Shown here: positions 24,802-41,631 of the stretch, piece after piece
Layout: every line of letters begins with the position of its first letter
Numbering within the stretch: the first letter of the stretch is position 1
Assembly (NCBI GenBank): GCA_045531965.1
Contig: JAZSFA010000097.1
Coordinates: 7,935-71,934 of the forward strand
Direction of reading: 5' to 3'
DNA length: 64,000 nt
From: Eubacteriales bacterium
Lineage (GTDB): Bacteria; Bacillota; Clostridia; Oscillospirales; CAG-272
Notes under the pieces: model-generated
Database searches by the model: none
Seen by the model: only the letters and a program-made list of their open reading frames with translations
What the model was told of the DNA's origin: nothing
Program-made: the position numbers and the translations under genes

Positions 24802-25629
24802 TCAGGCTTCCGTATTCATATGGCTACGTTGCATTCGTTTTTCGTGAAAAGACGGCGAATGACCGAAAAAAGTATGATAATTACGATAAAAAGTCGTGTA
24901 ATCGCCAAATCCGCATCGTTCACAAACGATGGTTGGCTTCTCTCCTGCAGATATCATTTTCTGCGCCATGAGAAGCCTTTTTTCCAGTATATAATTTTTC
25001 GGAGTCCGGTGCAGCTCTTTTTGAAACATACGAAAAAGATAACTTTCACTCACGAACAAAAACGCGGCAATTTCTTGGACGGTTTGAAGGGTACACAGGT
25101 TTTCGTTGATATATTTGAGCGCCTTTGAAATCATGGGAGACATCGCGGTAGCATTAGTTTTTTGGAGATGAGGAAACATGGCAACATTATAAAACAGTTC
25201 GGATAGCAGGTGAGCCATAATTTTTTCAAAGGTTTCCGGAGCGTTGCTTTGCCTGTAAAAGTCACTTTTTTCAAAAATATCCTCAATAATCCGATTTCCG
25301 TGAATATTGACCACTTCCACATCCTCGGGAATCAATCCTGCACTCTCCACGCCGTGCTTTTCGGCATCAAAAAGAATATCGTAGCGTTCATATGTAGCAG
25401 GCGCATCGATCTGAATAAAATGATACCGGAGGGGACGTATGAGAATCAAATCCCCCTTCTTCAGCTTGTATTTTCTATCCTCGATGATGTGCGTGGCATC
25501 ACCGTCTAAAAAATAAATCAACTCGTAAGCATTATGTGTATGCATGGAATAAGTATCACAGGGTAGATTTTCAGATATTTCATGTTTAAAAAATATTCTT
25601 TCGGCTGTCTGTAAATAATCGTTTTTCAT
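24802..25629 (-). CDS. AraC-family regulator with cupin sensor domain
   Basis: MHTHNAYELIYFLDG cupin; CGFGDYTTFYRNY HTH; start at 25629 or 25692. Confidence 0.9.
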   Translation of the reverse strand: MKNDYLQTAERIFFKHEISENLPCDTYSMHTHNAYELIYFLDGDATHIIEDRKYKLKKGDLILIRPLRYHFIQIDAPATYERYDILFDAEKHGVESAGLIPEDVEVVNIHGNRIIEDIFEKSDFYRQSNAPETFEKIMAHLLSELFYNVAMFPHLQKTNATAMSPMISKALKYINENLCTLQTVQEIAAFLFVSESYLFRMFQKELHRTPKNYILEKRLLMAQKMISAGEKPTIVCERCGFGDYTTFYRNYHTFFGHSPSFHEKRMQRSHMNTEA

Positions 25630-25714
25630 TGTGAGGCCCTCTTTGAAGCATTCTATGTCGTTTATTATACCACCGTTGTTCATTTGTTGCAATCTGTATT
25701 TTCAGATATCACTA

Positions 25715-25743
25715 TTTACTTTTCAAAAAAAATATTGTATAAT
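25715..25743 (+). promoter_or_regulatory. Promoter of the oxidoreductase-nag operon
   Basis: TTTACT-17 bp-TATAAT. Confidence 0.55.
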
Positions 25744-25775
25744 ACATAAAAGAATACTTACAAAGGAGTTGCCAA

Positions 25776-26846
25776 ATGAAAAAACTGAACGTTGCCATCA
25801 TCGGTCAAGGACGAAGCGGTAAGGATATCCACGGTACATACTATCGCAGTGAAAACAATCGCTACTTCTCTGTCAAGTACGTTGTGGAAGCCGATGCTTT
25901 CCGTCGTCAGGTGTCGGAGGAACTCTATCCCGGCTGTCGTAGCCTTTCGGATTATACCGAGTTGTTTGCTTTTGATGATATTGATCTTGTTATCAACGCC
26001 ACTTATTCCGACATGCACTATCCCATCACCAAGGATCTTTTGCTGCACGGAAAAAACGTTTTGGTAGAAAAACCCTTCGCCCGCTCGCGGTATGAGTGCG
26101 ACGAGCTCATGCGTATCGCCGAACAGCAGGGCGTGATCCTTGCTGTATTCCAACAGACCTTTTTCGCCCCCTTCTATCAGTTTACCTACGATATCATTCG
26201 TTCGGGCAAGTTGGGAGACGTGAAGCAGATCAACATCCGCTACAACGGCTTTGCCCGCCGTTGGGACTGGCAGACCCTACAGAAGAAATGCGCGGGCAGT
26301 ACCTACAATACGGGCCCCCATCCCATTGGTATGGGATTGGGTTTTTTTGATTTCGACCCTAACGTGCGGGTGGCATACAGCAAGTTGGATACTGCGCTCA
26401 CCAGCGGGGACGCCGACGATTACGCCAAAATCCTTCTGACCGCACCGAACCATCCCCTTGTAGATATTGAGATTACCTCGATTGACGCCTACTCGGGGTA
26501 TAACCTGAAAGTTTTGGGTACCAAAGGCACCCTCAAGGTAACGCCGAATGCCTATGAGATGACCTACATCGTGGACGGTGAGAATCCCGACCGTCCCGTG
26601 GTTGAAACCTTCCTCCACGATGATGCCGGAAATCCCATCTATTGCTCGGAACCGCTCATCAAGCACGTGGAGGCAGACAACTTCAACGGAAGCGCCTTTG
26701 ACGTGGGAACAGCAACCCTCTACGAACAGCTCTACTACAAAATTACTGAAGGACGGGAGATGACCGTCACAGCAAAAATGGCGGCGGCCGTCATTTCGGT
26801 CATTGAGGAGGTTCACGCCGCAAATCCCCTACCCCTTAAGTATTAA
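25776..26846 (+). CDS. Gfo/Idh/MocA-family NAD(P) oxidoreductase
   Basis: VAIIGQGRSG Rossmann motif; VLVEKP; NTGPH. Confidence 0.9.
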   Translation: MKKLNVAIIGQGRSGKDIHGTYYRSENNRYFSVKYVVEADAFRRQVSEELYPGCRSLSDYTELFAFDDIDLVINATYSDMHYPITKDLLLHGKNVLVEKPFARSRYECDELMRIAEQQGVILAVFQQTFFAPFYQFTYDIIRSGKLGDVKQINIRYNGFARRWDWQTLQKKCAGSTYNTGPHPIGMGLGFFDFDPNVRVAYSKLDTALTSGDADDYAKILLTAPNHPLVDIEITSIDAYSGYNLKVLGTKGTLKVTPNAYEMTYIVDGENPDRPVVETFLHDDAGNPIYCSEPLIKHVEADNFNGSAFDVGTATLYEQLYYKITEGREMTVTAKMAAAVISVIEEVHAANPLPLKY

Positions 26847-26858
26847 GGAGATGACAAC

Positions 26859-27728
26859 ATGAAAAAAATCGCCATTCTCGGATGCGAAAACTCTCACGCC
26901 GATGCTTTCCTGTCTTTCATCAAGGGAAAAGAGGAATTTTCCGACGTAGAAGTCGTAGGCGTATATAGCGACCATACCGAGGCAGCCGAAAAGCTGCATG
27001 AGAACTTTGACGTTCCTGTCATGAAGCATTACGCCGATGCTGTTGGAGAAATCGACGGTCTGATCATCACAGCACGACACGGGGGCAGTCACTATAAGTT
27101 CGCACGCCCCTACATCGAAAGCGGTATTCCCATGTTCATTGATAAGCCCATTACCATCAGCGAGGAAGATGCCGTTGCGTTTATGAAAGCGTTGAAGACT
27201 CGAGGTGTCCGTATCTCCGGAGGCTCATCGCTCAAGCAGGATGCCTACGTCGGACAGCTCAAATGTGATGTTGCCAACGAGGTCGGGGGCAAGACTTTAG
27301 GCGGATATGTCCGTGCGCCCTATCAAAGAGAAAACCCCTACGGGGGATTCTACTTCTATGCCCAACATCTGGTTGAAATGGTCTGTGAGATTTTTGGAAG
27401 ATTCCCTCTGTCCGTGACCGCTCGTCAAAACGGCGCCAATCTGCACGTGCTGTTTCATTACGAAAGCTACGATTGCGTAGGACTTTTCTGCGACAACAGC
27501 TACCATTACTACGCCGCCCGTATGGCGGAAGTAGGTTCCACAGGTTATGAAATCCCCTCCACAAACGATTGGTTTTACAGAGAGTTCCGAGAATTCTACG
27601 GTATTCTCTCGGGCGGAAATCAAATCATCGGCTACGATGAATTCATATCCCCTGTTATGATCATGAATGCCATCATGCGTTCTTTGGAGAGCGGGAAAGA
27701 AGAACTGATCCCCAAGATTTGCCTGTAA
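26859..27728 (+). CDS. Gfo/Idh/MocA-family oxidoreductase (DKP variant)
   Basis: IAILGCENSHA; PMFIDKP; FYAQHLVEM. Confidence 0.85.
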   Translation: MKKIAILGCENSHADAFLSFIKGKEEFSDVEVVGVYSDHTEAAEKLHENFDVPVMKHYADAVGEIDGLIITARHGGSHYKFARPYIESGIPMFIDKPITISEEDAVAFMKALKTRGVRISGGSSLKQDAYVGQLKCDVANEVGGKTLGGYVRAPYQRENPYGGFYFYAQHLVEMVCEIFGRFPLSVTARQNGANLHVLFHYESYDCVGLFCDNSYHYYAARMAEVGSTGYEIPSTNDWFYREFREFYGILSGGNQIIGYDEFISPVMIMNAIMRSLESGKEELIPKICL

Positions 27729-27741
27729 GGAGATCCTACCT

Positions 27742-28584
27742 ATGAGCCATTGCATACTATCTGCGTTTGCGGATGAATACGCCGCATCTTTTGAGAAACA
27801 GTTGTATGGACTTCGTCAATTTGGGATTGACTATATCGAAATCCGTCACGTAGATGGCAAAAACATATCACTTCTATCTGACAATGAAGTCAAGGAAGCC
27901 AAGAAAAAATTGGATGCTTTGGGCATTCAGGTGTCCGCTATCGGTTCACCCTTAGGAAAAATCCACTTAGACGAAGACATAGGGGCGCATTTGGAGATGG
28001 CAAGGCAAATTTTTGAAGCCGCCAACGTGATGGAAGCGAAATACGTGCGCGTATTCAGCTTCTACGCACCGAGTGGAAAAAGCATCGGACGCATGAAGAA
28101 TCAAGTGCTGGATGAACTTGACAAGCTCATCGCTTTAGCAAGTGAATACGGCATTACGCTGTGCCACGAAAATGAAGCGAACATATACGGTGAAACCCCA
28201 GAACGTTGTCGAGAGCTGTTAGACAGTTTCGACGGGCAACTCAAATGTGTATTTGATATGGGAAATTTTGTTTTGGAAGGTGTGGATCCCTACCCTGAAG
28301 CTTACAGGCTCCTGCAAAAGGATATCGTCTATTTCCACATCAAGGATGCATTGGCAGCGGGAGCCGTCGTGCCTCCCGGTAAGGGAGAGGCAAGGATCAG
28401 AGAAATACTCTCGGCACATAAACTATATGCAACCGAGGATTTTTTCGTATCTCTTGAGCCACATCTGCAAACCTTTTCGGGACTCAATGCGCTCGTTGGT
28501 CGTTCCTTCGAAAATCCTTATCAATACCCGAATGCCGAAAGTGCTTTTGCCGATGCTGTTGTGAAATGTAAGGAGTTACTGTAA
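27742..28584 (+). CDS. Sugar phosphate isomerase/epimerase (xylose-isomerase-like TIM barrel)
   Basis: LSAFADE; LCHENE; FDMGN; HIKD; SLEPH metal ligands. Confidence 0.9.
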   Translation: MSHCILSAFADEYAASFEKQLYGLRQFGIDYIEIRHVDGKNISLLSDNEVKEAKKKLDALGIQVSAIGSPLGKIHLDEDIGAHLEMARQIFEAANVMEAKYVRVFSFYAPSGKSIGRMKNQVLDELDKLIALASEYGITLCHENEANIYGETPERCRELLDSFDGQLKCVFDMGNFVLEGVDPYPEAYRLLQKDIVYFHIKDALAAGAVVPPGKGEARIREILSAHKLYATEDFFVSLEPHLQTFSGLNALVGRSFENPYQYPNAESAFADAVVKCKELL

Positions 28585-29349
28585 ATGAGAATCATAAAAA
28601 AAGATTTGTTATCTGTCAAAATATTTGAAACCAGAGCAGACATGGGAATGTCCGCTGCCATGGACGTTAAGGCGTGTATCCTTTCCCTTCTTAAGACCAA
28701 AGAAACCCTCAATATGATCTTTGCCGCTGCACCTTCACAAAACGAGGTGTTGGCTTCTCTGGTCGCGGATCCCGACATTCCTTGGAATCGTATCAACGCT
28801 TTCCACATGGATGAATACGTAGGGCTCTCTCCAAGTGCCCCTCAAGGATTCGGAAACTTCTTGAAGGATCATATTTTCGGCTTGGTGTCTTTCAGGAGCA
28901 TTCACTATATAGATATCGCAGCACCTGATGCTGAGGCAGAATGCGCTCGCTACACTGCCCTTCTGAAGCAGTATCCCACAGATATTGTGATCATGGGCAT
29001 TGGCGAGAACGGTCATATTGCTTTCAACGATCCGCCCGTGGCAGACTTCAACGACCCCAAGGCGGTCAAGACCGTGGCTCTCGACGAAATCTGCCGCAAC
29101 CAGCAGGTACATGACGGTTGCTTTGCCCGTATTGAAGACGTCCCCCAATCAGCCATTACTCTGACTGTTCCCACCTTGTTTGCAGGAAAGCATCTCTTCT
29201 GTATCGTCCCCGCCCAAACCAAAGCGGCGGCCGTTCGTGCCACGCTGACCGACAAGATTGGGGAACAATGCCCAGCCACCATTCTGCGCCGCCACACGAG
29301 CGCAGTACTGTATTTGGACGGCGACAGCAGTGCCCTTCTTCAAAGCTAA
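28585..29349 (+). CDS. nagB: Glucosamine-6-phosphate deaminase-like
   Basis: FHMDEYVG; MGIGENGHIAFNDP; CPATILRRH. Confidence 0.85.
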   Translation: MRIIKKDLLSVKIFETRADMGMSAAMDVKACILSLLKTKETLNMIFAAAPSQNEVLASLVADPDIPWNRINAFHMDEYVGLSPSAPQGFGNFLKDHIFGLVSFRSIHYIDIAAPDAEAECARYTALLKQYPTDIVIMGIGENGHIAFNDPPVADFNDPKAVKTVALDEICRNQQVHDGCFARIEDVPQSAITLTVPTLFAGKHLFCIVPAQTKAAAVRATLTDKIGEQCPATILRRHTSAVLYLDGDSSALLQS

Positions 29350-29351
29350 TC

Positions 29352-30512
29352 ATGAAAAGAATCAAGAGTGATCGAATCATACTGCCCGACGGATTATTTA
29401 GCGGGTACATTTATTTTAAAAACGACAGGATCACCGACGTGTCCGCTTCCAACTGCCCGGTCAGTCAGGAATACGATGCCACAGGTTACTACGTCAGCCC
29501 GGGGTTCATCGATATTCACACCCATGGCGGTGGTGGAAATCCCTTTGAAGGGAGCGTGGATGAGATCATCGCCGGATGCAACTTCCATTTGAAGCACGGA
29601 ACCACCGCCATATGTCCCACAGTCTCAGCTGCGGAGTTTTCCAGCATGGCACGCTCTGTTGAAAACATCCGTCAAGCCATGGCAGATCCTCGCGTGCGTG
29701 GAACCATCCTCGGTGCCCATTTGGAGGGTCCCTATCTATCCACAAAGCAAACAGGCGCACAGTGCGCTGATTTCATCACTGCGCCTCGAAGAGATGACTA
29801 TCTACCTCTGCTGGAAAAATATGCCGACGTGATTGCCCGCTGGAGCTACGCCCCGGAAAACGACACAGGAGAGGACTTTGTCAAGGCATTAAAGCGATAC
29901 GGTGTGGTAGCATCCGCGGGTCATACCGACGCGATTTACGACGATATATTAAGAGCCATGGAGAGCGGCTGCTGTCTTATCACCCATCTGTATTCCTGCA
30001 CTTCCACCATCACCAGGGATCACGGATTCCGCAGGCTCGGCGTCATCGAAACTGCCTATCTCTTGAAGGATTTGTTTGTAGAGATCATCTGTGACGGCAA
30101 ACACCTGCCCCCGGAACTGATCAGACTGATCTATCAGATCAAAGGCGCGGACAGGATCGCCCTGGTAACCGACAGTCTGTCTTTGGCGGGGACAGATCAG
30201 ACTCACGGCTTCATGCAAAGCACTGAATTTATCATCGAGGATGGTGTCTGCAAACTGATGGATCGCAGCGCCTTTGCGGGTAGCATCGCCACGGCAGACA
30301 GGCTGGTTCGCGTTGCCGCTCGCGAGGCGGGGATTCCGCTGACAGATGCCGTCAAAATGATAACCGCTACGCCCGCGAAAATCATGAACCTCCCTCACAA
30401 GGGACAGATCGCGGCGGGAATGGATGCGGATTTCGTGGTGTTTGACGGGGATATCCAAATCAAAAACGTCTTTGCCAACGGGGTCATGGTTGATCAGGAA
30501 TCGTTGGACTGA
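29352..30512 (+). CDS. nagA: N-acetylglucosamine-6-phosphate deacetylase
   Basis: PGFIDIHTHG; GAHLEGPY; AGHTD; THLY; ICDGKH; FAGS; start moved to ATG 29352. Confidence 0.92.
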   Translation: MKRIKSDRIILPDGLFSGYIYFKNDRITDVSASNCPVSQEYDATGYYVSPGFIDIHTHGGGGNPFEGSVDEIIAGCNFHLKHGTTAICPTVSAAEFSSMARSVENIRQAMADPRVRGTILGAHLEGPYLSTKQTGAQCADFITAPRRDDYLPLLEKYADVIARWSYAPENDTGEDFVKALKRYGVVASAGHTDAIYDDILRAMESGCCLITHLYSCTSTITRDHGFRRLGVIETAYLLKDLFVEIICDGKHLPPELIRLIYQIKGADRIALVTDSLSLAGTDQTHGFMQSTEFIIEDGVCKLMDRSAFAGSIATADRLVRVAAREAGIPLTDAVKMITATPAKIMNLPHKGQIAAGMDADFVVFDGDIQIKNVFANGVMVDQESLD

Positions 30513-30586
30513 AAAGCAAGGCGAGCCAAACGTGAAATTTTGGGTGCCGGTTTCGTCCCTGCGCTTCTTATGAGCGGTGCATCATA

Positions 30587-30625
30587 TCAAAAAATCGGAG
30601 GCTCTATGGAGCCTTCGATTTTTGA
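30587..30625 (+). terminator. Terminator-like hairpin after nagA
   Basis: AAAATCGGAGGCTC-tatg-GAGCCTTCGATTTTT. Confidence 0.7.
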
Positions 30626-30727
30626 TTCTACAGTAAATTTTGCTTTTGATGATCCGCACTTTGAGCCTTACATCAGACGTTGGCAAGCATATTTGACCCA
30701 ATTATCATATAAATCGAACAAAATTGA

Positions 30728-30756
30728 TTGACAAATCTTCGAAAAAGTGCTATTAT
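30728..30756 (+). promoter_or_regulatory. sigmaA promoter
   Basis: TTGACA-17 bp-TATTAT with TG extension. Confidence 0.7.
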
Positions 30757-30825
30757 TTGTATAAACAAAAATATCACCTATCCGCACCGCTTACGGTGCA
30801 GATGTGAGCACAGAAAGGATTGACC

Positions 30826-32733
30826 ATGATGAAAAAATTTTTGGCCGTGCTGTTACTGATGCTGGCGTGCGCGCTTCTGTTCGGCTGCGTGCAGGAAGTG
30901 CCTCATGAACCCGCCACCGACACCACGCCTTCAGTAGATGAATCCCACCCCCCTGTGACCGATCCTCCCGAAACAATGCCCAACACAGAAGAGGAAACCC
31001 AGCCCGCCACAGAGGAAGCCACCACTAAAGATGAAGAGCCTACCGAACCCGCGGCTGTCGCCCTGTACCAGCTGGCTCCGGAAAAGAACAGTCTGATGCA
31101 GTCCTACGTTATCAAAACATCGAACGGCAAGCTCATTGTCATTGACGGCGGTATCGACGGCGAGGGGCGCGACCGCGATCCCTACATGCCTGCCGCTCTG
31201 CGCTCCATTCTGGGCTTGGGGCAGGACGATTACTTCGAGGTGGAGGCTTGGTTCCTCTCCCACGGTCACAAGGATCACATGTATGAATTATCCAAGATGC
31301 TGCGGGACTACTCCGAAGAGTCCAACTACAAGATCAACAACATTTACTTCGACTTCCCCGAGTTCGGCAGTGAGGAGTATCCCACCGAGAACGCCGACAT
31401 GGAGTTTTCCCAGATCAAAGAAAATATCAACAAGTACGGCGCAGCCATCGGGGCTACGGTCAAGGACGGCTCCACCTACTACGATGATATCAATGGCGCC
31501 TTTATCAACAGCGAATCGGTAGCTAAAGGTCTGTCCCTTGAGATTGACGGTGTGAAGATCGATATCCTCCAGACATGGGATCCCGCTGACGGCTTCAGCA
31601 ACATCAACGATACCTCCCTGGTGCTTCGCTTCCATATCGGTGAGCAGACCGTCCTGTTCCTGAACGACCTGGGCGTCAACGGCGGCCGCCGTCTGCTGGC
31701 TACCTACGGGGATCAGCTGAAGTGCGACATGGTTCAGATGGCCCACCACGGCCAGGCGGGCGTGAATAAGGACGTGTACGACGCCATCGACGCCGACGTC
31801 CACCTGTGGCCCACCCCCATCTGGGTGTGGAACAACTCCAACGGTATCTACCAGATCGACGACGTCCGCCAGTGGCTGTACGGAGAGACCTTCCTCGAGG
31901 GCAGTGAGTACGACATTGTATCTTGCCTATATGATAAATATCCTTCCGGCAGTACTGTGACAAGAACTTGGAGCAGAGTCATTGACGGCATGAAGATCGA
32001 ATTCCCCTATATCGTGCCTGAGCGTCCCGAGCCCGAGACCGAGCCTGAGACCGAGCCCGAGGTGATCGAGCCCGTGGATCACGATTACGTGAGCGACGGC
32101 CTGGTGGCCTACTACAGCGGTACCCAGTCCACCCGCGGCGGTCACGACAAGGATTCCGCTGTCTGGCAGGATCTGGTGGGCGGTCACGACATGGCCATCA
32201 CCAAGAATGACGACAACTACTTCTCCGACACGGGCCTGCGAGCCAAGGGCGTCAAGCACAACTTCCCCCAGGCCATCGTGGACACCGTCAACGGCCAGGC
32301 CTTCACCATTGAGATCCTGCTGGGTGATTTCGTGTCGGTGGGCAACGAGTTCAACACCTTCATCAACGGCTCGGGTGACGAGATCGCCCTGTTCCGCCGC
32401 AATTCGGTGGACGAACTGGAGCTGAAGTTCCAGATCAATGCCGGCGTCCGCATCAAGGTCAAGGACTGCCTGAATCTGTTGCAGAACAGTCTGATCACCA
32501 TCACCTACACTCAGAACGACGTGGTTCGTCTGTACGTCAACGGCGAGCTGAAGGGGGAGACGCCCACCATCAGCGGTTCCCTGGGCGCGTCGGATCTCTT
32601 CATCGGACACAACGCCCAGAACAAGATGTTCGACACCACCTACCGTTCCGTCCGCTTCTACGACCGCGCCCTGACCGCCGAGGAGGTTGCAGCGAACGCG
32701 GTGGTAGATGGGTATGGAGTCACGGCAGAGTGA
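30826..32733 (+). CDS. Lipoprotein: ComEC/Pce-like metallo-beta-lactamase-fold hydrolase with C-terminal LamG/ConA-like domain
   Basis: Lipobox LFGC; VIDGG, SHGHKDH, NDTSLV, QMAHHG; PEPETEPETEPE linker; LYVNGE...VRFYDRALTAEEV. Confidence 0.85.
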   Translation: MMKKFLAVLLLMLACALLFGCVQEVPHEPATDTTPSVDESHPPVTDPPETMPNTEEETQPATEEATTKDEEPTEPAAVALYQLAPEKNSLMQSYVIKTSNGKLIVIDGGIDGEGRDRDPYMPAALRSILGLGQDDYFEVEAWFLSHGHKDHMYELSKMLRDYSEESNYKINNIYFDFPEFGSEEYPTENADMEFSQIKENINKYGAAIGATVKDGSTYYDDINGAFINSESVAKGLSLEIDGVKIDILQTWDPADGFSNINDTSLVLRFHIGEQTVLFLNDLGVNGGRRLLATYGDQLKCDMVQMAHHGQAGVNKDVYDAIDADVHLWPTPIWVWNNSNGIYQIDDVRQWLYGETFLEGSEYDIVSCLYDKYPSGSTVTRTWSRVIDGMKIEFPYIVPERPEPETEPETEPEVIEPVDHDYVSDGLVAYYSGTQSTRGGHDKDSAVWQDLVGGHDMAITKNDDNYFSDTGLRAKGVKHNFPQAIVDTVNGQAFTIEILLGDFVSVGNEFNTFINGSGDEIALFRRNSVDELELKFQINAGVRIKVKDCLNLLQNSLITITYTQNDVVRLYVNGELKGETPTISGSLGASDLFIGHNAQNKMFDTTYRSVRFYDRALTAEEVAANAVVDGYGVTAE

Positions 32734-32767
32734 GCGTTCGCCGTAGCGTGATATCCTCATAATTATT

Positions 32768-32811
32768 GATCGCCCCTGACGCAAAATTTTGCATCAGGGG
32801 CGATCCCCTTT
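32768..32811 (+). terminator. Hairpin terminator
   Basis: GATCGCCCCTGA...TCAGGGGCGATC. Confidence 0.7.
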
Positions 32812-32894
32812 GGAATTTCACGGCTTGACAAATTTGTTGAATGACATAAAAGCCTGTAATTTTTCCGTGAAGGCTTGTTTTTTTGAAAAAAATA

Positions 32895-32903
32895 TGTTAT
32901 AAT
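32895..32903 (+). promoter_or_regulatory. Extended -10 element of the membrane LuxR gene
   Basis: TGtTATAAT; TTGTTT 17 bp upstream. Confidence 0.5.
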
Positions 32904-32934
32904 GGTTTATAGGGTAAGAAAAGGAGGTGTGACC

Positions 32935-33894
32935 ATGGTAATCGCATATATAGTTATGTTCATTTTGGCTCTGCTATTGCCCCTTGTATATTTTCTCTTC
33001 GTGCAAAAAACGCAAAATGAACCTTGGCTATTAGTCCTATACATATGTGTTTGCATCGCCACTTTGGGTTGGTTACTTCTTTCCATTTCCCCCAGCGTAA
33101 ATTGTGCCCTGTGGGCTAATAAGATCGCATATTTAGGTCAGGTTTTCATCCCCCTTTGTATGTTCATGATCATCTCCAAGCTCTGCGGCTTCCGCTACAG
33201 TCGCTCCTTGGTCTTCTCCCTGGTGGGTGTCTCGGTTCTGATGTTTGCCATGGTCATGACCACGGGTTATCTGGATTGGTACTACGCCAAAGTCACCCTT
33301 GAATATGCCGATGGCGCTGCCAAGCTGGTCAAAGAATACGGTTTTCTCCATCCTTTATATCTATTCTACATTCTCGGATATTTTGCAGCCATGATCACGG
33401 TGACCGCCATTTCTCTGCGCAGAAACAAGGAAGGATCTCCAAAGCTTGCGGGGCTGATGCTGGCGGTCGTTCTCGGCAACATCGGTATTTGGATCATTGA
33501 GAAATTTATTCCCTTGAATTTTGAATTTTTGTCAGTTTCTTACTTAATGAGCGAGACGGTTTTCTTCTTCGTCTATCTTCTTCTGCAAGATTATATTCAC
33601 GTAAGAGATATTCCACCGCCTGTCATTGTCAAGGAAAAAGTACCTATCATTGTAGTGGATACCATCCCGAGAGCCGAAAAGATCAAAGCGATCCTTGAAA
33701 GAGTCCCGCAAGGAACCACCCTTTCCGCCCGCCAAATGGACGTGTTGGAGGGGATTCTTGACGGAAAGAGTCGCAAAGAAATTGCGGCAGATCTTCACCT
33801 TTCCGAAAACACGATAAAGATGCATACTTCCTCGCTCTACAGATTGCTTGACGTATCCAGTCGCGAGGAAATTTACGCGATCTTCAAAACCTAA
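32935..33894 (+). CDS. Membrane-embedded one-component regulator: about 7 TM helices plus LuxR HTH
   Basis: About seven hydrophobic segments (HisKA_7TM-like NKIAYLG); LSARQMDVLEGILDGKSRKEIAADLHLSENTIKMH; AGGAGG RBS before ATG 32935. Confidence 0.88.
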   Translation: MVIAYIVMFILALLLPLVYFLFVQKTQNEPWLLVLYICVCIATLGWLLLSISPSVNCALWANKIAYLGQVFIPLCMFMIISKLCGFRYSRSLVFSLVGVSVLMFAMVMTTGYLDWYYAKVTLEYADGAAKLVKEYGFLHPLYLFYILGYFAAMITVTAISLRRNKEGSPKLAGLMLAVVLGNIGIWIIEKFIPLNFEFLSVSYLMSETVFFFVYLLLQDYIHVRDIPPPVIVKEKVPIIVVDTIPRAEKIKAILERVPQGTTLSARQMDVLEGILDGKSRKEIAADLHLSENTIKMHTSSLYRLLDVSSREEIYAIFKT

Positions 33895-33913
33895 AGTTTT
33901 TTCATAATGCTTC

Positions 33914-33943
33914 AAGGCGGTAGCCATGGCTACCGCCTTTTTT
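33914..33943 (+). terminator. Rho-independent terminator
   Basis: AAGGCGGTAGCCATGGCTACCGCCTTTTTT. Confidence 0.85.
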
Positions 33944-33961
33944 GCGCTTTATGCTGCTTTT

Positions 33962-34037
33962 TACCCCCAAAACACCCTTAAACACCCCCAAAGCACCCTT
34001 GGCGGGTGTATTTTTTTATACTTATATATGATATATT
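33962..34037 (+). promoter_or_regulatory. Promoter with phased CACCC array
   Basis: (T/C)ACCC at 33962, 33973, 33983, 33994, inverted GGGTG at 34004; TATACT at 34017 or TGaTATATT at 34029-34037. Confidence 0.7.
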
Positions 34038-34150
34038 TATTATGTTAGTGTTGTGGTTCTGTCCCAATGCTTGGTCATTTGTGCAGAAGAGGAAAAGCAC
34101 ATTCAACGCTGGCGAAACAGTCCCCGTGTAAACGGTAAAGGAGAAAAAAC

Positions 34151-37100
34151 ATGAAAACAAATGTCAAGTCAAAGCTATTGTCCATCCTGCTTGTACTCAT
34201 CATGGTACTTGCCTCGGTTCCCTTTTCCGCTCTGCCCGCATGGGCAGATGAGCCCGAGATCACCGAGGTCGGTACTTGGACCGAACTACTCAACGCAGTC
34301 AACTCAGACAAGACACACATTAAGCTCCAAAAAAATATTGAAGACATCGTTCCTGACGATGAGCTTCCCACAAAGCACCGTCTTGTCTTTAACGGCGGCA
34401 AAGATTACGTCCTTGATCTGAATGGCTATGAACTGAAGGTGCTCAACCATATCAATGAGTTTTACAGCGGTGAGTTTTCCATGATCGAAGTGTCGGGCAG
34501 TTCAAAGCTTGAGATCAAGGCCGGTAGCCTTATTTTTGATAACTATTCTACAAAAGCCAACCGTAAAGCCAAGGGTGTTGTTGCTGTCAAAGATGACTCT
34601 TCCCTTATTGCCATCGACGTAAATATGCAGAACAGATACACAGGCACGGTGGTTTATGCGAATTCCTCTGCCAAGGTTACCCTTGACGGCGGCGAGTACG
34701 CTGTTCAAAACGGATTTGCAATATATCTTGAAAATCAGGCTTCTCTGACCCTTGACGGACCCTATATCCATACAACTATGGGTGATGGCACCCCTACTCA
34801 ATACGTTGACGGCTACGGTGCCCTTTACTCCGAGAGTAAAGGGGCGCTAGTCATCAATGACGCTTTCTTCAAATCGGGTGTACAGGTAAGCAGCTCGCAG
34901 ATTGACGCGTTTTCTGTTGCTACCCACGAGGTGACGGTCAACGGACAGGTGTTGACCGAGGATATATTCGTAGGAACGAACTTCGAGGCGAAGCAGCAGA
35001 ATAAGGCATATTATTGGTATTCATGGACAGGATATTCTCTGACTAAAACCGATAACTCTTCTTTTGCCAATCCCGTAAGAGTGATTTCCTATGAGAAGAA
35101 ATATCCCGTAACGGTTGAATCAGGTGTTGCGATGGTTGGCGGTAAGCCCGTAACCGAGGCAAGCTACGGTCAGGAGGTCACGGTCGTAGCGAATACCCCG
35201 GAGGAAGGCATGGAATTTGTGCGTTGGGACACCAGCGGAGTTAAGCTTGCTGACGATTACAGCGCATCAACCTCCTTTACGATGGTGCCCGCGCCCGTTA
35301 CCTTGGCGGCATATTACGGTAAGGAAGCGGTCAAGGCGGTGAGCATTACCGTTGATGATCTTATTCCCGGACAAAGTGTAAATGATACCAAGATTACTTT
35401 GGAAAACGGCGTGATCCTCCAAGCCGTTGAATGGCGCGAGGAATCAGCTTTGAAAGGCGATTATGCTGTTTTCAGAGCAGGTAAAAGCTATACCGTAAAT
35501 ATGCTTGTCTATCCCCCCGAGGGAAACAAGTTTAGTGACACCGTAACAGCCACGGTCAACGGCAAAAGCGCGACGGTGAACGCAAACTCCCAATACGCGT
35601 ATATCGAGTACACCTTTGAGGCGACGCCTTCGGTGGGATTTAGCATTGTGTATGACACCAACAATTCTCAACTCGGTGTCGGCGGTAATCTCCTGCTCGA
35701 TACTGCATTGATGGCCTCCCAAAGCGCGGAATTCAAATCAGCCTTGGATGCGGGTAAGGTTACCTATCAATGGTACAGAAACGGCGAGGCCATTGAGGGT
35801 GCGACGGATGCTGTTTACAACTTTACCGCAGAGGATGTGGCGGGCATATTTTACGTAGCTGTGACAGCAGACGGCAAGAGCAATTACGGACATAACGTGA
35901 CTTGCAGCGGGGATCTGTATCAGGTCTATTTGAATGCCAGTGATATTATTGCGGGCGAAAAGGTGCCTCAGATCACTGTGGCTACCCCCGGAGTTTCTAT
36001 TGATACAGAGAGCATGGCTATCTATGAGATACTCGGGAATAATTCTTACGGAAATCCCCAAAGCTTGGCAAACTCGATTTTGATTCCCGGTAAAAGCTAC
36101 TGCTTGGTCGGTAAGATCATAGAGCAGGATGGCGTAACTGTTGCTAACAATGCCAATGTTTACGTAAACGGTGAACTGATGAAAGACAAGCTCGACACCG
36201 GACGCTTCTTCTATGAATTCACAGTTCCCGAGGCAGACTTCCCCGTATATTACAAGGCAAACGGCGAGACAGGTATTGGCGTGACGTTGACGGTGGATAT
36301 TGAGAAGATGTGTAACGAAAACGGCACTTTTAAGCACGCTGTTGAAGCTGCAAATCCCACCTATCAGACGGTATTTTATCAGTGGTACAAGAACGGCGAG
36401 GCTATCAAGGGTGCGACAGATCCCTCCTACACCGTAAAAGCTGTTGACAGAGACAGCTACATCCACTGTCAGGTCACCCTTGTGGACGGAAAATACGGCA
36501 TTGGTGAGCAGTATGCGATCTCAAACGTTATAACTGTCATCAACGTTAATATGCCTCTACCTAAGGACGGCGAATCGAGAATAACCACCGGAATTTCTGC
36601 TGACGGCGTTGTCATGAGCGGCATTATGTGGTGGCCGAAGGAAACGGGGGCTACCATGCAAGGAGATGCTAAGTACGTCGAAGGTGAAGTTTATGAGTAT
36701 CTAATCAGCTTTGAAGCTAAAGACGGTCTTTCATTGGATTTTACGGGAGAGATGACTGTTGCTTACGTTAACGGCACAAAAATCACTCCCGCGGGCTCCG
36801 GTAATGGAGCAGCACGTTACACAGGCGAGGTTACCGCCATCCATAAGCATCAATACAGCGACACGGTATGGGATCATGACGAATACGCACACTGGCAGCC
36901 CTGTATCGTTCCGGGCTGTCCCAATCCCAGCGAAGAATGGATGATGTACACCGAGCATAAGGGCGGCACCGCAACCTGCCAGACCAAGGGTGCATGTGCC
37001 CTTTGCGGCTACGAATATTACGCGGATCACGATTTTTCCGTTCCCGATTACCAATACGTGGACGATATGAAATGTGCCAACTTCTGTGAGAATTGTGACG

Positions 37101-37837
37101 TATATAGTGCCTGGAGCTATCACGAGGGCGGTGTAGCTACCTGCAAAGAAAAATCTGTCTGTGATATTTGTCACCATGAATACGGCAAGCTGGCAGAGTG
37201 TGCGGGCGGCACGGCCACCTGCACTGAAAAGGCCATCTGTGCTACCTGCGGTGAAAAGTACGGCGAGCTTGCGGAGCACGCATACACCAATCTGAACGGC
37301 TACAAAGGAGCTGACGGTCATGCCAACGTTTGTGAATGCGGCGCTCACGATACCCCTGTTGCTCATACCCCCGACAGAGCCGAGGCAACCGAGACCGAGG
37401 CTGTCAAGTGCTCAGATTGCGGTTACATCATCACGCCCGCTTTGGGACACACCACCCATACCCCCAAGGATGAATGGAGGAGCGACGGTCAGAACCACTG
37501 GCACGAATGCGTCGGCTGTGAAGGTCAGGAGCTTGACAAGGCGGCTCACGCAGATAGCAACGACGACGGCAAGTGCGATACTTGTGATTACACCATGAGC
37601 ACGGACATCCCCGATGATCCCGAGACACCCACCACCTCGGAGGATCCTGAAGAAACTGAAACCCTCGATGTTCCCCAGAAGGGTGACGGTGACAAGGGCG
37701 GTATGGGTGCCGGTGCTGTGATCGGCATTGTCATCGCTTCCCTGCTGGTTGTCGGCGTGGGCGGATTTGTCGTGGTTTGGTTCGGTGTCAAGAAAAAGAG
37801 CTTCGCTGATCTGAAAGCGGTATTCAAAAAGAAATAA
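34151..37837 (+). CDS. 1228-aa membrane-anchored surface protein (beta-helix-like N-terminus, InlB-B-like and Ig-like domains, Cys/His repeats, C-terminal TM)
   Basis: Signal peptide ...SALPAWA; two YQWY(R/K)NGEAI.GATD domains; GGTATCxxKAxCxxC repeats; TM plus KKKSF tail. Confidence 0.88.
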   Translation: MKTNVKSKLLSILLVLIMVLASVPFSALPAWADEPEITEVGTWTELLNAVNSDKTHIKLQKNIEDIVPDDELPTKHRLVFNGGKDYVLDLNGYELKVLNHINEFYSGEFSMIEVSGSSKLEIKAGSLIFDNYSTKANRKAKGVVAVKDDSSLIAIDVNMQNRYTGTVVYANSSAKVTLDGGEYAVQNGFAIYLENQASLTLDGPYIHTTMGDGTPTQYVDGYGALYSESKGALVINDAFFKSGVQVSSSQIDAFSVATHEVTVNGQVLTEDIFVGTNFEAKQQNKAYYWYSWTGYSLTKTDNSSFANPVRVISYEKKYPVTVESGVAMVGGKPVTEASYGQEVTVVANTPEEGMEFVRWDTSGVKLADDYSASTSFTMVPAPVTLAAYYGKEAVKAVSITVDDLIPGQSVNDTKITLENGVILQAVEWREESALKGDYAVFRAGKSYTVNMLVYPPEGNKFSDTVTATVNGKSATVNANSQYAYIEYTFEATPSVGFSIVYDTNNSQLGVGGNLLLDTALMASQSAEFKSALDAGKVTYQWYRNGEAIEGATDAVYNFTAEDVAGIFYVAVTADGKSNYGHNVTCSGDLYQVYLNASDIIAGEKVPQITVATPGVSIDTESMAIYEILGNNSYGNPQSLANSILIPGKSYCLVGKIIEQDGVTVANNANVYVNGELMKDKLDTGRFFYEFTVPEADFPVYYKANGETGIGVTLTVDIEKMCNENGTFKHAVEAANPTYQTVFYQWYKNGEAIKGATDPSYTVKAVDRDSYIHCQVTLVDGKYGIGEQYAISNVITVINVNMPLPKDGESRITTGISADGVVMSGIMWWPKETGATMQGDAKYVEGEVYEYLISFEAKDGLSLDFTGEMTVAYVNGTKITPAGSGNGAARYTGEVTAIHKHQYSDTVWDHDEYAHWQPCIVPGCPNPSEEWMMYTEHKGGTATCQTKGACALCGYEYYADHDFSVPDYQYVDDMKCANFCENCDVYSAWSYHEGGVATCKEKSVCDICHHEYGKLAECAGGTATCTEKAICATCGEKYGELAEHAYTNLNGYKGADGHANVCECGAHDTPVAHTPDRAEATETEAVKCSDCGYIITPALGHTTHTPKDEWRSDGQNHWHECVGCEGQELDKAAHADSNDDGKCDTCDYTMSTDIPDDPETPTTSEDPEETETLDVPQKGDGDKGGMGAGAVIGIVIASLLVVGVGGFVVVWFGVKKKSFADLKAVFKKK
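37203..37795 (+). repeat. Copy 1 of a 593-bp C-terminal module
   Basis: Ungapped match to 40988-41580 (offset 3785), about 35 mismatches by eye. Confidence 0.92.
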
Positions 37838-37852
37838 TATATGTCGAGCATC

Positions 37853-37876
37853 CCCCTTTCTCTTCGGGGAAAGGGG
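37853..37876 (+). other. Intercistronic UUCG-tetraloop hairpin without U-tract
   Basis: CCCCTTTCTC-TTCG-GGGAAAGGGG just before the next RBS. Confidence 0.6.
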
Positions 37877-37893
37877 CGTAAAGGAGAAAAAAC

Positions 37894-40800
37894 ATGAAAA
37901 CTCCATTAAAATCAAGACTTATCGCCATGCTGCTTGCCCTTGTGATGGTGCTTGCACTCGCTCCCGTGAGTGCCTTGACCGCATTTGCGGCAGGTGGTGC
38001 AGAATGGGTAGATTTTGCTATTATTGGGCATTGGGGTGTATTTTTTGAGCAAACAGGCTCATCTCAAAAGTATCCCATCGTGCTTACAAATGAAAACAAG
38101 CTCTCAGTGCCGCTTCCGACTCTTTACAGAACGGATACCGACGATTACGTGTTTGACGGTTGGTATATCGCCGACACAGACACAAAGGTAACGCAGGATA
38201 CCGTGTTTGACGGATATACCGTAGTGGTTGACAGATGGACTTTCAGGGAAAAAGACTATAATACGGTGATAAGCAGCATTAAGGTAAACAATGTGGCTCT
38301 TGAAGCAGGTATGACCACCGCAGAATACAATGCGGCAGTACAGGGTGCTACTGCAACTGTAAACGGCGCGCCTGCAAACGCCATTACCGCCGACAGTGCC
38401 AAGACCTATACGATCTATCACGGTCTTAACAAGAGTGGTGAGCCTCTCAAAGCTGACGAGGAGGTTGAGGTAGGTCAGGACTATTCGGTTGTTACGAAAA
38501 TCAAGCTTGCGAACGGATATACCTTTGATCCCAATATCACATTCTCATCTGAGGAAGGTATGTGCGCAAGCGAAAGATTTTTGGGCGGTGCTGACATTTA
38601 CACAAAGCAATGGAACACCCTTGCAACCGAAGTTGAAGTGACCATCAACTTTATGAATACCGATTACTATTTTGATCAGACTCCCGAGAGCAGAAAGCTT
38701 GAAAACTATGCACAGTATAAGAACTGGTACACGGTTTCAAAGCATGAAGGTCTTGAATCGGTTACGCTTCAATATGAGTCCGACGGCGCGTGGGCGGTGT
38801 TCATTGATAACGTGCCGTTTGAAGCCAATGGCGAACAAGCAGGTGGATACGTTACGGTATCCCCCTATGTAGATACCACAAAAACCTTCAGACTCGTTGC
38901 AAATTATACGCAAGGAAAAGTATATAGCGAGCCATTTGAGGTTTCTTGGGCGTGCCTAAATCCCGTGATTGAAAGCGTAGGCATTGGTGTTACAGCACCT
39001 GTAAACGGTTATGCGCCTCAATATACGGCAACGCTTTCTACAAGCACTTGCACTCTTAAATCAGAGGACGAATCTACCGTGAAGAATGGTATTAAGTGGA
39101 CTGGCGAGACAGGCGAGTTAAGGGTTTCGGACGGTATGTTTGCCGATGATAGTGATTACACAGTAGGTGTAACGTTGGTTGCACAGGATGGCTACACCTT
39201 TGCAAATAGTGTAACGGCTACCGTAAACGGAGGCAAAGCAAACGTTAGCGTTAAAAGCGAAACCGAGATAATAGTCAGCTATACCTTTCCTAAATACGAG
39301 CCTCCCGTAACGAAATATTACGTTGTGTTTTCCAATGCGGGCGGTTATGCGTCGGGCACGATGCCGACTGAATGGGTTGAAGCGGGAAATTATACGCTTC
39401 CTGCTCCCGGATATACTCCGTATAAGGGTTATGAATTCGTTGGTTGGATGATACAGGGTGAGCTAAAGCAGCCCGGGGACGTAATTTCGATATCGGATAA
39501 CGTTGTTATCGATGCCCGTTGGAAGAACGCAGACGCTGAAAAAATAGGAAGCCTTGGTATCTCTATTACCGCTCCAAAGAACGAAAATTCTCCAGAATAT
39601 ACCGCAATTCTCACCACCAGTAAATGCAAGCTCAAGGACGTAAGCTGCATAAGCTGGGTGGGAGAAAATGTAGGCGAGCTTAATGTCAATTCTAAATTTA
39701 ACAACGACAATGATTATACCGTAACGATCAAGCTGGTCGCGGAGGACGGATATAAGTTTACGAATAGCGTAACGGCTACCGTAAACGCAAACAACGCGAT
39801 AGTTTTAGTTAAGAGCGAGAGCGAAATATGGGTGAGCTACACCTTTGCGAAGCCTGTAAAGCATATTGTAACCTTCAATACTAATAGTACCTTTGCCACG
39901 GGAACAATGAGCCCTGTTGAAGCTGTTGAAGGTAGCTACACGCTTCCCGCACCTACTTACACGCCCAAATACGGCTATACCTTTGCGGGCTGGCTTTTAA
40001 ATGGATATCTCAGACAGCCGGGTGATGAAATTACGTTAACTTCTCCGACTACTTTGGAAGCTCGCTGGAAGAGCGATTACGCACCCGTAGGATTTATAAA
40101 GCAACCGAGTGAGCCTGACGCAAAGACTACGTCAACTCAGATCCAATATAGGGTGAGCAATTTTGAAATCGATCCGTCTATTGCCTACGACAGTATTCTC
40201 GCGCAGGTGTACAATGAAGATACGGGCGAATGGGTGTCCGACATATATGACGGTGGCAATCTTGTTGTAACTGCCGGCAATGGGGCAGTTGACTCAGGAT
40301 ATGGATATGATATTATTGTTTTCTACGCCAACATAGCCAAGAAATATACTTTCCGCATCATTGCAAAGAATGGCGGTGACATTGTAGCCTCCAGTGAGTC
40401 TTTTACGGTCAGATGGATTCCCAAGTCTATTACAGTTCAACCCAAGGGAGATATGATAGATATTGGTGAGACCTATACCGTAACTATAAAAACAAACTTT
40501 TATATCTCCTCCAGCGAGATCGAGTATTATGACGCAGAGACCGACCAGTGGAAGCTTTATACGACCGTTGGAAGCAGCAAATGGCAGCCGTTTACAAAAG
40601 ATTTTACGTCCAATACGGAAAGCTCCTTAAGACTTCGTGTCAAGATATACGAATCCCCCGGAAATCTTACCGACACAAGTAATGAGTTTACGATCACTTG
40701 GACTAACCACAAGCATACGTACGGAGTGTCACCGAACGGAAAGGATGAATCAAACCACTGGAAAGAATGTACCGATCCTGCTTGCCCCGATCAGCAGAAC

Positions 40801-41625
40801 AGCATCATTGAGGTAACGCCTCACAAGGCCATCGGCGGCAACTGTCAGATCGAAGCGGCGTGCGCTTGCGGTGAGATGCTTCTCGGCAATCACATGATGT
40901 CGAATGAATGGTCACAGGAGAACGGTCAGCACTTCCACAAGTGTATGATTTCGGGATGTTCGCATACCGACGAAAAAGTGAATTGCTCGGGCGGCACGGC
41001 CACCTGCACTGAAAAGGCCATCTGCACCATCTGCGGTGAAAAGTACGGCGAGCTTGCGGAGCACGCATACACCAATCTGAACGGCTACAAAGGAGCTGAC
41101 GGTCATGCCAACGTTTGTGAATGCGGCGCTCACGATACCCCTGTTTCTCATACCCCCGACAGAGCCGAGGCAACCGTGACAGAGGCTGTCAAGTGCTCAG
41201 ATTGCGGTTACATCATCACGCCTGCTCTGGGGCACACCTCCCATACCCCCAAGGATGAGTGGAAGAGCGACGGACAAAACCATTGGCACGAATGCGTCGG
41301 CTGTGAGGGTCAGGAACTTGAAAAGGCGGCTCACGCAGATAGCAACGCCGACGGCAAGTGCGATACTTGTGATTACACCATGAGCACGGACATCCCTGAT
41401 GATCCCGAGACACCCACCACCTCGGAGGATCCTGAAGAAACTGAAACCCTCGATGTCCCTCATACGGGTGACGGTGACAAGGGCGGTATGGGTGCCGGTG
41501 CTGTGATCGGCATTGTCATCGCTTCCCTGCTGATCGTCGGCATAGGTGGGTTTGCTGTAGTTTGGTTCGGGGTCAAGAAACGAAATTTTTCCGAGCTCGC
41601 GGCAATATGGAAGAAAAAGGAGTAA
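37894..41625 (+). CDS. 1243-aa membrane-anchored surface protein (InlB B-repeats, Ig-like repeats, Cys/His repeats, C-terminal TM)
   Basis: Signal peptide ...LTAFA; YTLPAP.YTP..GY.F.GW twice; DGY.F.NSVTATVN twice; same C-terminal module as the upstream gene. Confidence 0.88.
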   Translation: MKTPLKSRLIAMLLALVMVLALAPVSALTAFAAGGAEWVDFAIIGHWGVFFEQTGSSQKYPIVLTNENKLSVPLPTLYRTDTDDYVFDGWYIADTDTKVTQDTVFDGYTVVVDRWTFREKDYNTVISSIKVNNVALEAGMTTAEYNAAVQGATATVNGAPANAITADSAKTYTIYHGLNKSGEPLKADEEVEVGQDYSVVTKIKLANGYTFDPNITFSSEEGMCASERFLGGADIYTKQWNTLATEVEVTINFMNTDYYFDQTPESRKLENYAQYKNWYTVSKHEGLESVTLQYESDGAWAVFIDNVPFEANGEQAGGYVTVSPYVDTTKTFRLVANYTQGKVYSEPFEVSWACLNPVIESVGIGVTAPVNGYAPQYTATLSTSTCTLKSEDESTVKNGIKWTGETGELRVSDGMFADDSDYTVGVTLVAQDGYTFANSVTATVNGGKANVSVKSETEIIVSYTFPKYEPPVTKYYVVFSNAGGYASGTMPTEWVEAGNYTLPAPGYTPYKGYEFVGWMIQGELKQPGDVISISDNVVIDARWKNADAEKIGSLGISITAPKNENSPEYTAILTTSKCKLKDVSCISWVGENVGELNVNSKFNNDNDYTVTIKLVAEDGYKFTNSVTATVNANNAIVLVKSESEIWVSYTFAKPVKHIVTFNTNSTFATGTMSPVEAVEGSYTLPAPTYTPKYGYTFAGWLLNGYLRQPGDEITLTSPTTLEARWKSDYAPVGFIKQPSEPDAKTTSTQIQYRVSNFEIDPSIAYDSILAQVYNEDTGEWVSDIYDGGNLVVTAGNGAVDSGYGYDIIVFYANIAKKYTFRIIAKNGGDIVASSESFTVRWIPKSITVQPKGDMIDIGETYTVTIKTNFYISSSEIEYYDAETDQWKLYTTVGSSKWQPFTKDFTSNTESSLRLRVKIYESPGNLTDTSNEFTITWTNHKHTYGVSPNGKDESNHWKECTDPACPDQQNSIIEVTPHKAIGGNCQIEAACACGEMLLGNHMMSNEWSQENGQHFHKCMISGCSHTDEKVNCSGGTATCTEKAICTICGEKYGELAEHAYTNLNGYKGADGHANVCECGAHDTPVSHTPDRAEATVTEAVKCSDCGYIITPALGHTSHTPKDEWKSDGQNHWHECVGCEGQELEKAAHADSNADGKCDTCDYTMSTDIPDDPETPTTSEDPEETETLDVPHTGDGDKGGMGAGAVIGIVIASLLIVGIGGFAVVWFGVKKRNFSELAAIWKKKE
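40988..41580 (+). repeat. Copy 2 of the 593-bp C-terminal module
   Basis: Matches 37203-37795. Confidence 0.92.
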
Positions 41626-41631
41626 ACAGTT

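Follow-up and report, generated by a model that had tools for sequence, protein, structure and literature searches.

A candidate membrane-tethered LuxR-type regulator and phased CACCC arrays in front of surface-protein genes of uncultured gut Clostridia

We analysed a stretch of 64,000 nucleotides (nt) from a Eubacteriales bacterium (assembly GCA_045531965.1, contig JAZSFA010000097.1, positions 7,935 to 71,934), termed the window, which encodes a membrane protein of 319 residues ending in a LuxR-type helix-turn-helix (HTH) domain. Behind its gene stands an array of CACCC-type repeats in steps of 10-11 base pairs (bp), followed by genes for large surface proteins, and a second such array precedes the gene of a giant surface protein. 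We favour, with moderate confidence, the view that the protein is a membrane-tethered one-component activator and that the phased array is its operator. Taken separately, binding of the regulator to the array is very likely on comparative grounds, and activation, provided that it binds, is the likely outcome judging from the geometry of the promoters; we infer that binding occurs while the protein remains in the membrane. Sequence comparison strongly supports that regulator and array are linked to the surface-protein genes, since the layout recurs in 23 of 24 loci, regulators and arrays co-occur, the repeat motif varies together with the recognition helix, and the spacing to the promoter is fixed in the absence of a -35 box. 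The features of the regulator locus are as follows.

32935-33894, plus strand: gene of the seven-transmembrane LuxR one-component regulator, 319 residues (open reading frame (ORF) list, Pfam, AlphaFold2 model)
33914-33945, plus strand: intrinsic terminator of the regulator gene, a perfect palindrome of 13+13 nt (33914-33939) with a T run (terminator scan)
33962-33998, plus strand: array B, four direct copies of (T/C)ACCC, candidate operator (motif search)
34004-34008, minus strand: inverted copy GGGTG, 5 nt past the last direct copy
34017-34022, plus strand: TATACT, alternative -10 element, starting 18 nt past the last direct copy
34029-34037, plus strand: extended -10 element TGATATATT, hexamer 34032-34037, favoured by spacing
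34151-45738, plus strand: operon of three surface-protein genes encoding 1228, 1243 and 1368 residues (ORFs 34151-37837, 37894-41625 and 41632-45738)
45747-45776, no strand assigned: bidirectional terminator with a 13-bp stem, closing the operon (terminator scan)

The regulator ORF is preceded by AAGGAGG. Pfam assigns residues 8-213 of its product to HisKA_7TM (PF16927; 44.2 bits versus a cut-off of 28.6, and 44.9 bits in a genome-wide profile search) and residues 262-315 to the GerE/LuxR HTH (PF00196; 55.9 bits versus 23.5). No kinase, ATPase (HATPase_c), HisKA core or receiver was matched in Pfam at E ≤ 0.01, and the autoinducer-binding domain expected of a quorum-sensing LuxR protein was not found there either. 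Nor does the protein qualify as a two-component response regulator, since the corresponding NCBIfam models match the HTH only (residues 245-317) and score far below their cut-offs; SdiA- and PA1136-type models likewise align to the HTH alone, with 16-20 bits. An AlphaFold2 model based on 47 sequences (mean predicted local distance difference test score, pLDDT, 77.9) contains seven transmembrane (TM) helices, at residues 2-26, 30-50, 55-83, 90-108, 139-163, 169-191 and 198-218, with a beta hairpin (117-135) in the outer loop that connects TM4 to TM5. The HTH of the model (262-318) follows a linker of about 40 residues, of which the part 221-242 is disordered (pLDDT < 50 at 221-224 and 226-242). 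When the sequence is read for charged loops, the basic ones alternate in side (RYSR after TM3, RRNK after TM5, the tail after TM7), which predicts an extracellular N-terminus and a cytoplasmic HTH. The HTH (262-313) can be aligned over its full length, and its best matches among solved structures are ChrA, LiaR, GerE, VraR and DesR. Twelve of the 43 invariant residues fall within 109-139, that is, in the outer loop, the hairpin and the start of TM5; the invariant outer-loop residues include T109-Y117 and G127-H139. Homology of the 7-TM domain to G-protein-coupled receptors was considered and rejected, the likeness being weak and generic (TM-score 0.34-0.48, root-mean-square deviation 5.6-9.8 Å, best E-value 4.8e-4). 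In the 3.47-Mb assembly the regulator is the only full-length copy and carries the only HisKA_7TM domain. No array is found upstream of the regulator gene, neither in the window nor in any of 16 relatives checked, so that the sensor is probably made constitutively.

Array B is composed of TACCC at 33962 and CACCC at 33973, 33983 and 33994, in steps of 11, 10 and 11 bp, and its last copy forms the palindrome CACCC-N5-GGGTG with the inverted one. The products of the three downstream genes, which sum to 11.6 kb, each have a signal peptide, InlB-B/Listeria-Bacteroides repeats, Cys-rich modules and a Pro/Thr/Glu linker, and end in a hydrophobic C-terminal helix with a basic tail. No strong terminator was found between the three genes. 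An Rfam scan of 20700-34300 returned a single match of 21.5 bits against a threshold of 369, so no riboswitch or known leader RNA was detected in this region, and no long inverted repeats of the kind that flank an invertible promoter were seen around promoter B. The second array lies on the other strand, between the terminator of the preceding gene and a giant gene for a protein with leucine-rich repeats (LRR), which is 12.8 kb away.

21061-21097, minus strand: array A, orphan, four copies of CACCC (GGGTG at 21061, 21071, 21082 and 21093)
21038-21046, minus strand: extended -10 element TGATATAAT of the giant gene, its hexamer starting 22 nt from the start of the last CACCC
6915-20837, minus strand: giant BspA-type LRR surface-protein gene, 4640 residues, behind array A (Pfam)

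Array A proceeds in steps of 11, 11 and 10 bp and has no inverted copy; together, the two arrays stand before about 25 kb of surface-protein genes. A first-pass annotation, made from the sequence alone, had described most of this: a protein of about seven TM segments fused to a LuxR HTH without kinase or receiver, which Pfam and the seven-helix model bear out; the terminator, the three steps of array B, the inverted copy, TATACT and the 11.6 kb of surface-protein genes, all of which are confirmed at the coordinates given above; and the second array at 21061 with some 25 kb of adhesin-like coding sequence behind the motif, where we find four CACCC copies before the gene of 4640 codons. The ORF at 21206-22192 (minus strand), beside array A, was examined as a possible second regulator and is not one. 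The only candidate for an invertible element around array A is a 14-nt inverted pair (21013-21026 and 21201-21214, 86% complementary), which encloses the array together with its promoter and the terminator upstream, and is probably due to chance.

CACCC-N5-6-CACCC occurs five times in the window, always within array A or B, compared with 0.23 expected, and none of 100 shuffled windows reached five. Three phased CACCC copies are found in the 3.47-Mb genome at arrays A and B only, with zero to one in each of ten shuffled genomes. These counts exclude a chance origin of the arrays. Chains of at least four copies of any 5-mer in 10-11-bp steps exist at five loci genome-wide. Other phased ACCC-type arrays were noted at C40:30624-30720 (8-9 copies of AAACCCAA units) and C72:25925-25985 (TTTACCCCAAC units), amid what seem, from ORF starts only, to be phage or mobile-element genes. 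Because their units differ, we do not count them as part of the system but regard them as iteron-like and unrelated, probably replication iterons.

To place the locus in context we compared genomes (G-numbers, with G000 that of the window) and extracted loci (L-numbers). Within a genus sample of 29 genomes, orthologues of the regulator are present in G001 (82% identity), G006 and G016 (64%), G003 (62%) and G015 (51%), and G007 has a distant relative (35%). A further 21 loci, in metagenome-assembled genomes of animal-gut Clostridia (50-82% identity), were obtained by scanning species representatives, and two more at about 50% came from an order-wide sample. For synteny we retained 24 distinct regulator loci (48-100% identity, at least 150 nt of downstream sequence, each genome counted once). 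A terminator hairpin followed by phased direct repeats is found in 23 of them, with three to seven copies in 22 and two in L048. The genes behind these arrays code for large proteins that are secreted or are lipoproteins and that have InlB-B, Big_3 or LRR domains.

Regulators and arrays also co-occur genome by genome. G000, G001, G006 and G016 each have one promoter-type array beside the regulator gene and one orphan, and G015 has one, beside the regulator gene. In G001 and in G006 the orphan stands ahead of an orthologue of the giant LRR gene; this gene exists in three of the 29 genomes, each of which has both array and regulator. Persistence of arrays without the regulator had been named beforehand as an outcome that would speak against a connection. 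By the strict pattern, which would overlook degenerate arrays, and in a sample with many incomplete genomes, none of the 22 genus genomes without the regulator has a promoter-type array. The four other matches to this pattern have G+C-rich spacers and are internal to open frames of 225-671 codons; two are from G010 and G013, genomes without the regulator. In a second clade, in which the repeat is CCTATAC, the array is confined to the regulator locus in five of five genomes; additional CCTATAC matches in G047 lie inside coding sequence and were discarded.

More distantly, a sample of 301 genomes of the order gave full-length homologues (E ≤ 1e-30) in 31, representing 24 of 153 genera, mostly as one copy, and at least 120 clusters with both domains (58-84% identity) exist in public metagenomes. 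Some homologues carry the label PF26355, a family absent from the Pfam version used. Inspected by eye, six of 18 distant homologues (31-39% identity) are accompanied by C/TACCC-type sites in other arrangements: the repeats downstream of L086, L087, L089 and L093 read GTAGCCC/GTCCACCC, L090 has GGGTG-N5-CACCC immediately upstream of a -10 element, and L092 has two GTACCC-N3-GGGTAC palindromes.

Two small genes recur beside the regulators. In most related loci the first gene past the array encodes a cytoplasmic protein of 140-150 residues (L045:7179-7634, L047:7125-7580, L060:7203-7637 and 10 more loci). It belongs to no Pfam family, has no homologue in the genome of the window and is also missing from G016; the fold predicted for it is all-beta and only weakly resembles Mog1/PsbP-type structures (TM-score about 0.5, E ≥ 1.4e-3). 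One possibility is that it serves the regulator as a partner or in feedback. The second recurrent small partner is a Cys-rich ORF (ML-x-P-[IV]-TKKY.., CxxC pairs), the first gene behind the regulators of L086, L087, L088 and L089, which is also found behind a single-TM LuxR gene of the window's genome (G000 C5:7270-7600).

The geometry of the promoters is what points to activation. For 25 arrays we picked the -10 element by a fixed score against TGnTATAAT and obtained a unique best one in 23, the ambiguous cases being L056 and L060. The distance from the start of the last direct copy to the start of the hexamer is 37-40 nt in 18 of the 23, 27 nt in four and 22 nt in one; L077 and L078, with 39 nt, were counted separately. 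The 37-40 and 27 nt classes differ by exactly one repeat unit, and in about half of the longer class an inverted copy fills the slot 9-11 nt past the last direct copy (judged by eye for L077 and L078). Matches to TTGACA at -35 are like those of random sequence, 1-3 of six positions in 18 of 24 promoters and at best one of six in promoter B. The -10 boxes themselves are near consensus with TG, scoring 10-11 of 11 in 20 of the 25 arrays. If transcription starts 6-8 nt past the -10 element, the midpoints of the copies fall near -40, -50, -60 and so forth, all on the same side of the helix, and in none of the 25 arrays does a copy overlap the -10 element or the expected start. This spacing also bears on the choice between the hexamers at 34017 and 34032, which the first-pass annotation had left open. 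The hexamer of TGATATATT is separated from the last direct copy of array B by 38 nt, in agreement with the major class, and is therefore favoured as the -10 element, and the conserved spacing lends no backing to TATACT at 34017.

A further line of evidence comes from the recognition helix, whose motif ..SENT-I/V-K-X-H.. has a variable position X, residue 296, that changes together with the repeat unit:

residue 296 Met: unit AATACACCC (ACACCC), A before CACCC in 46 of 52 units, 12 arrays
residue 296 Thr: unit TTTCACCCC (TCACCC), T before CACCC in 27 of 28 units, 7 arrays
residue 296 Leu: unit TTACCCC, 1 array
residue 296 Trp: unit AAACCTATACC (CCTATAC), 18 units, 6 arrays

Eleven alignment columns split the CACCC from the CCTATAC class, three of which are in the HTH (280, 296 and 300). 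We take residue 296 to be equivalent to a NarL residue that contacts a base; its register, but not the base contact, is backed by alignments to ChrA, LiaR and GerE. In a phylogeny of the TM part only, residue 296 switches state six or seven times. The regulators of L061 (2913-3875) and L062 (6001-6963) are apparent recombinants: their TM domains group with those of L060 and L063 in the T/L clade (support 100), their linkers, HTHs and arrays are of the ACACCC/M296 type, and the join lies near the end of TM7. The orphan arrays of independent origin are all of the M type.

We propose that the seven-helix HisKA_7TM sensor, from which the linker of about 40 residues leads to an HTH of the NarL/GerE type in the cytoplasm, would work without a phosphorelay, a cue at the 7-TM domain setting its activity. 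Our guess is that the cue is read at the outer face, given how many invariant residues cluster in the loop that joins TM4 to TM5 on that side. Several protomers would dock their HTHs on successive (A/T)CACCC repeats at about -95 to -46, with the inverted or an extra copy at about -40 and this face of the DNA turned to the membrane. The promoter-proximal copy, direct or inverted, would stand in for the absent -35 box, and the protomers would activate a promoter with a strong extended -10 element. In this genome the predicted regulon would comprise two promoters, that of the adjacent three-gene operon and that of the 4640-residue LRR gene. A broader picture is more tentative, and we put it at rather less than an even chance: a signalling module of uncultured gut Clostridia, not recognised before, in which a bacterial seven-helix receptor reads a surface cue, lines up tethered HTHs on phased repeats and turns on giant adhesin-like proteins, the DNA being read from the membrane side with RNA polymerase on the other face, and residue 296 largely setting a specificity that could be re-assorted by recombination at the boundary between TM7 and the linker.

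Several observations weigh against an activator of this kind. G003 (L005/L043, contig C70), the exception among the 24 loci, keeps the regulator and has, directly past the terminator of its gene, an IS200/IS605-type transposase gene where array and surface-protein genes would be expected; no array was found anywhere in this genome, which is 75% complete. Downstream of 12 of the 18 distant homologues nothing obvious was seen by eye. The single 22-nt spacing is that of array A of the window, the corresponding distance being 27 nt in its two orthologues, so it is off-phase, and the inverted copy is missing from all three giant-gene arrays. As for co-variation, there are two well-supported independent M/T contrasts (six on all branches), and with only two the sign test (p = 0.5) is uninformative. 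Moreover, the HTH codons lie about 150 bp from the array, so that linkage alone could keep the two together. GerE-type HTHs usually act as dimers on inverted repeats, which makes four to seven direct copies unusual. Finally, near-consensus extended -10 promoters can work without a -35 box or an activator, and the array could equally repress.

This last point leads to a different use of the same regulator and operator, in which the protein would coat the -35 region and the DNA upstream and keep the extended -10 promoter off until a signal arrives. The quality of the -10 boxes is what such a repressor would call for, and the cost of making giant surface proteins lends plausibility to a default-off control. 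We nevertheless consider it unlikely, as the sites all lie upstream of the -10 element, between about -40 and -95 on a single face of the helix, which is classic activator geometry, and leave the -10 element and the expected start uncovered throughout; furthermore, the characterised transmembrane LuxR proteins are activators (PMC9734109). An improbable variant is regulated proteolysis, in which the linker (221-242) would be cut upon a signal to free a soluble HTH that then binds the array. The predicted disorder of the linker would suit it, and release by cleavage is known for other membrane-tethered transcription factors, but no protease gene is conserved at the locus and phased sites on one face suit binding from a surface. 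ToxR and the Eggerthella LuxR proteins are, moreover, thought to be active while membrane-bound (PMC8517210 and PMC9734109).

That the array belongs to another factor, or is bent or UP-like DNA with phased A-tracts whose place beside the regulator gene was simply inherited, we regard as quite improbable. Its spacers are A/T rich and phased and could bend DNA, and linkage between HTH and array could mimic co-variation; yet it is the C-rich core that is conserved, not A-tracts, arrays are seen only in regulator-bearing genomes, orphan promoters included, and the motif switches with residue 296 across clades as well as in the recombinants L061 and L062. Hardly probable at all is a second, weak terminator formed by the last CACCC and GGGTG. 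The scan does score GCACCCTTGGCGGGTGT and its T run as terminator-like, but the T run is lost in relatives that keep the palindrome (G016, L050, L054 and L056), a perfect terminator already stands 55 nt upstream, and orphan arrays have no hairpin. The tethered activator with the array as its operator thus remains the interpretation we favour. Of the proposal in the first-pass annotation that a membrane-tethered activator switches on surface proteins, the connection to these genes is upheld by the comparative evidence, activation stands as a deduction from promoter geometry, and the envelope or contact cue that it named would be conjecture.

The closest known systems share parts of this design. 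As described in the accessible text of PMC9734109, DadR, HcdR and CadR of Eggerthella lenta are transmembrane LuxR one-component regulators, shown genetically to activate neighbouring genes. Like our regulator, these LuxR proteins of Eggerthella and Coriobacteriia combine a polytopic membrane domain with a C-terminal LuxR/GerE HTH, have no phosphorelay and are encoded next to their targets. The regulator therefore has the layout of that class but not its 10-12 TM helices: it has seven, of the HisKA_7TM type, and the Eggerthella proteins have a different domain, a distinction from DadR that is drawn from helix count and domain and not from direct sequence comparison. According to the same text, Eggerthella has dozens of LuxR paralogues per genome (83 in one strain), compared with one here, and their targets are metabolic reductases in Actinobacteria rather than surface proteins in Clostridia; that text describes no operator for them. 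BguR/SusR-type regulators of Bacteroidota (BguR being marine) likewise join a GerE HTH to a membrane-spanning sensor without kinase or receiver, and the first gene under their control is preceded by a conserved motif, as in our system; they differ in their single TM helix, large periplasmic beta-propeller and association with polysaccharide utilisation loci (bioRxiv 10.64898/2026.01.10.698779, from the portion accessible). In ToxR, a membrane-bound activator, the direct repeat TNAAA-N5-TNAAA lies upstream of the promoter, and ToxR, TcpP and CadC resemble the proposed system as membrane-bound activators with direct repeats spaced by about one turn of the helix. Their winged-helix domain is N-terminal and of the OmpR type, and they have one TM helix and a periplasmic sensor, that is, a reversed topology and an unrelated fold (PMC8517210, accessible text). 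The regulator is thus not ToxR-like, and the common ground is the logic of a direct-repeat operator.

With respect to its two domains, HTHs of NarL/FixJ/GerE effectors are driven by a phosphorylated receiver or stand alone, whereas here the HTH sits on a 7-TM sensor. HisKA_7TM is described as a sensor of histidine kinases, many of them haloarchaeal (PMC5847659); in the regulator no kinase follows it. This was its only role in the literature searched, and neither a fusion of HisKA_7TM or another 7-TM domain to a LuxR HTH nor such an operator before adhesin genes was found in print, with the proviso that subscription journals were mostly outside the search and absence is unproven. The description of the locus as an undescribed system was therefore overstated, membrane-spanning LuxR activators having been published (PMC9734109; bioRxiv 10.64898/2026.01.10.698779; both in part), and holds for the HisKA_7TM form, the operator and the adhesin regulon, as far as that search reached. 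New here are the sensor fold, the phylum, the regulon and the well-defined operator; the principle of transmembrane LuxR activators is not.

The genome encodes a second membrane LuxR regulator outside the window, a protein of 789 residues (G000 C5:4755-7124, partly L015) that is nearer to the BguR layout than the 319-residue regulator is. A signal peptide is followed by an ectodomain with GG-rich repeats, beta-helix-like in appearance when judged by eye; a Pro/Thr linker and a single TM helix connect this ectodomain to a LuxR HTH in the cytoplasm. The mature N-terminus of the protein resembles, again by eye, that of the surface protein encoded at 34151. Downstream of its gene are ACCCCCC..GGGAGGGT, TATAAT, the small Cys-rich ORF and a surface protein of the lipoprotein type. 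G004 and G017 contain frames of about 809 residues with the HTH of this protein.

Two further observations concern the surface-protein genes. The next large secreted protein of the window (47749-52017, 1422 residues, no Pfam match) is preceded by a perfect TTGACA-17-TATAAT promoter (12 of 12 positions; 47637-47665) without an array, so some local surface-protein genes would lie outside the proposed regulon. Over its first 500 residues (19338-20837, minus strand), the giant LRR protein is 95% identical in G001 (L098) and 89% in G006 (L099), although the regulators of these genomes are only 82% and 64% identical, respectively; that the start of the giant protein is more alike than the regulators suggests recent transfer of, or strong constraint on, the giant gene.

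Almost nothing is known of how huge surface proteins are controlled in uncultured gut Clostridia, where they probably mediate attachment to the host, to fibre or to other microbes. The locus described here offers a defined unit, consisting of one sensor-regulator gene, a proposed operator of 40-70 bp, a predicted -10 element and a predicted regulon of two promoters, and its natural variants at residue 296 (M, T, L and W), each with a matching repeat, are material for a specificity swap. It adds a second sensor fold and another phylum to the transmembrane LuxR one-component class, and, if the comparative reading is right, this class would gain its first clear operator architecture, in parallel to the ToxR-type membrane activators.

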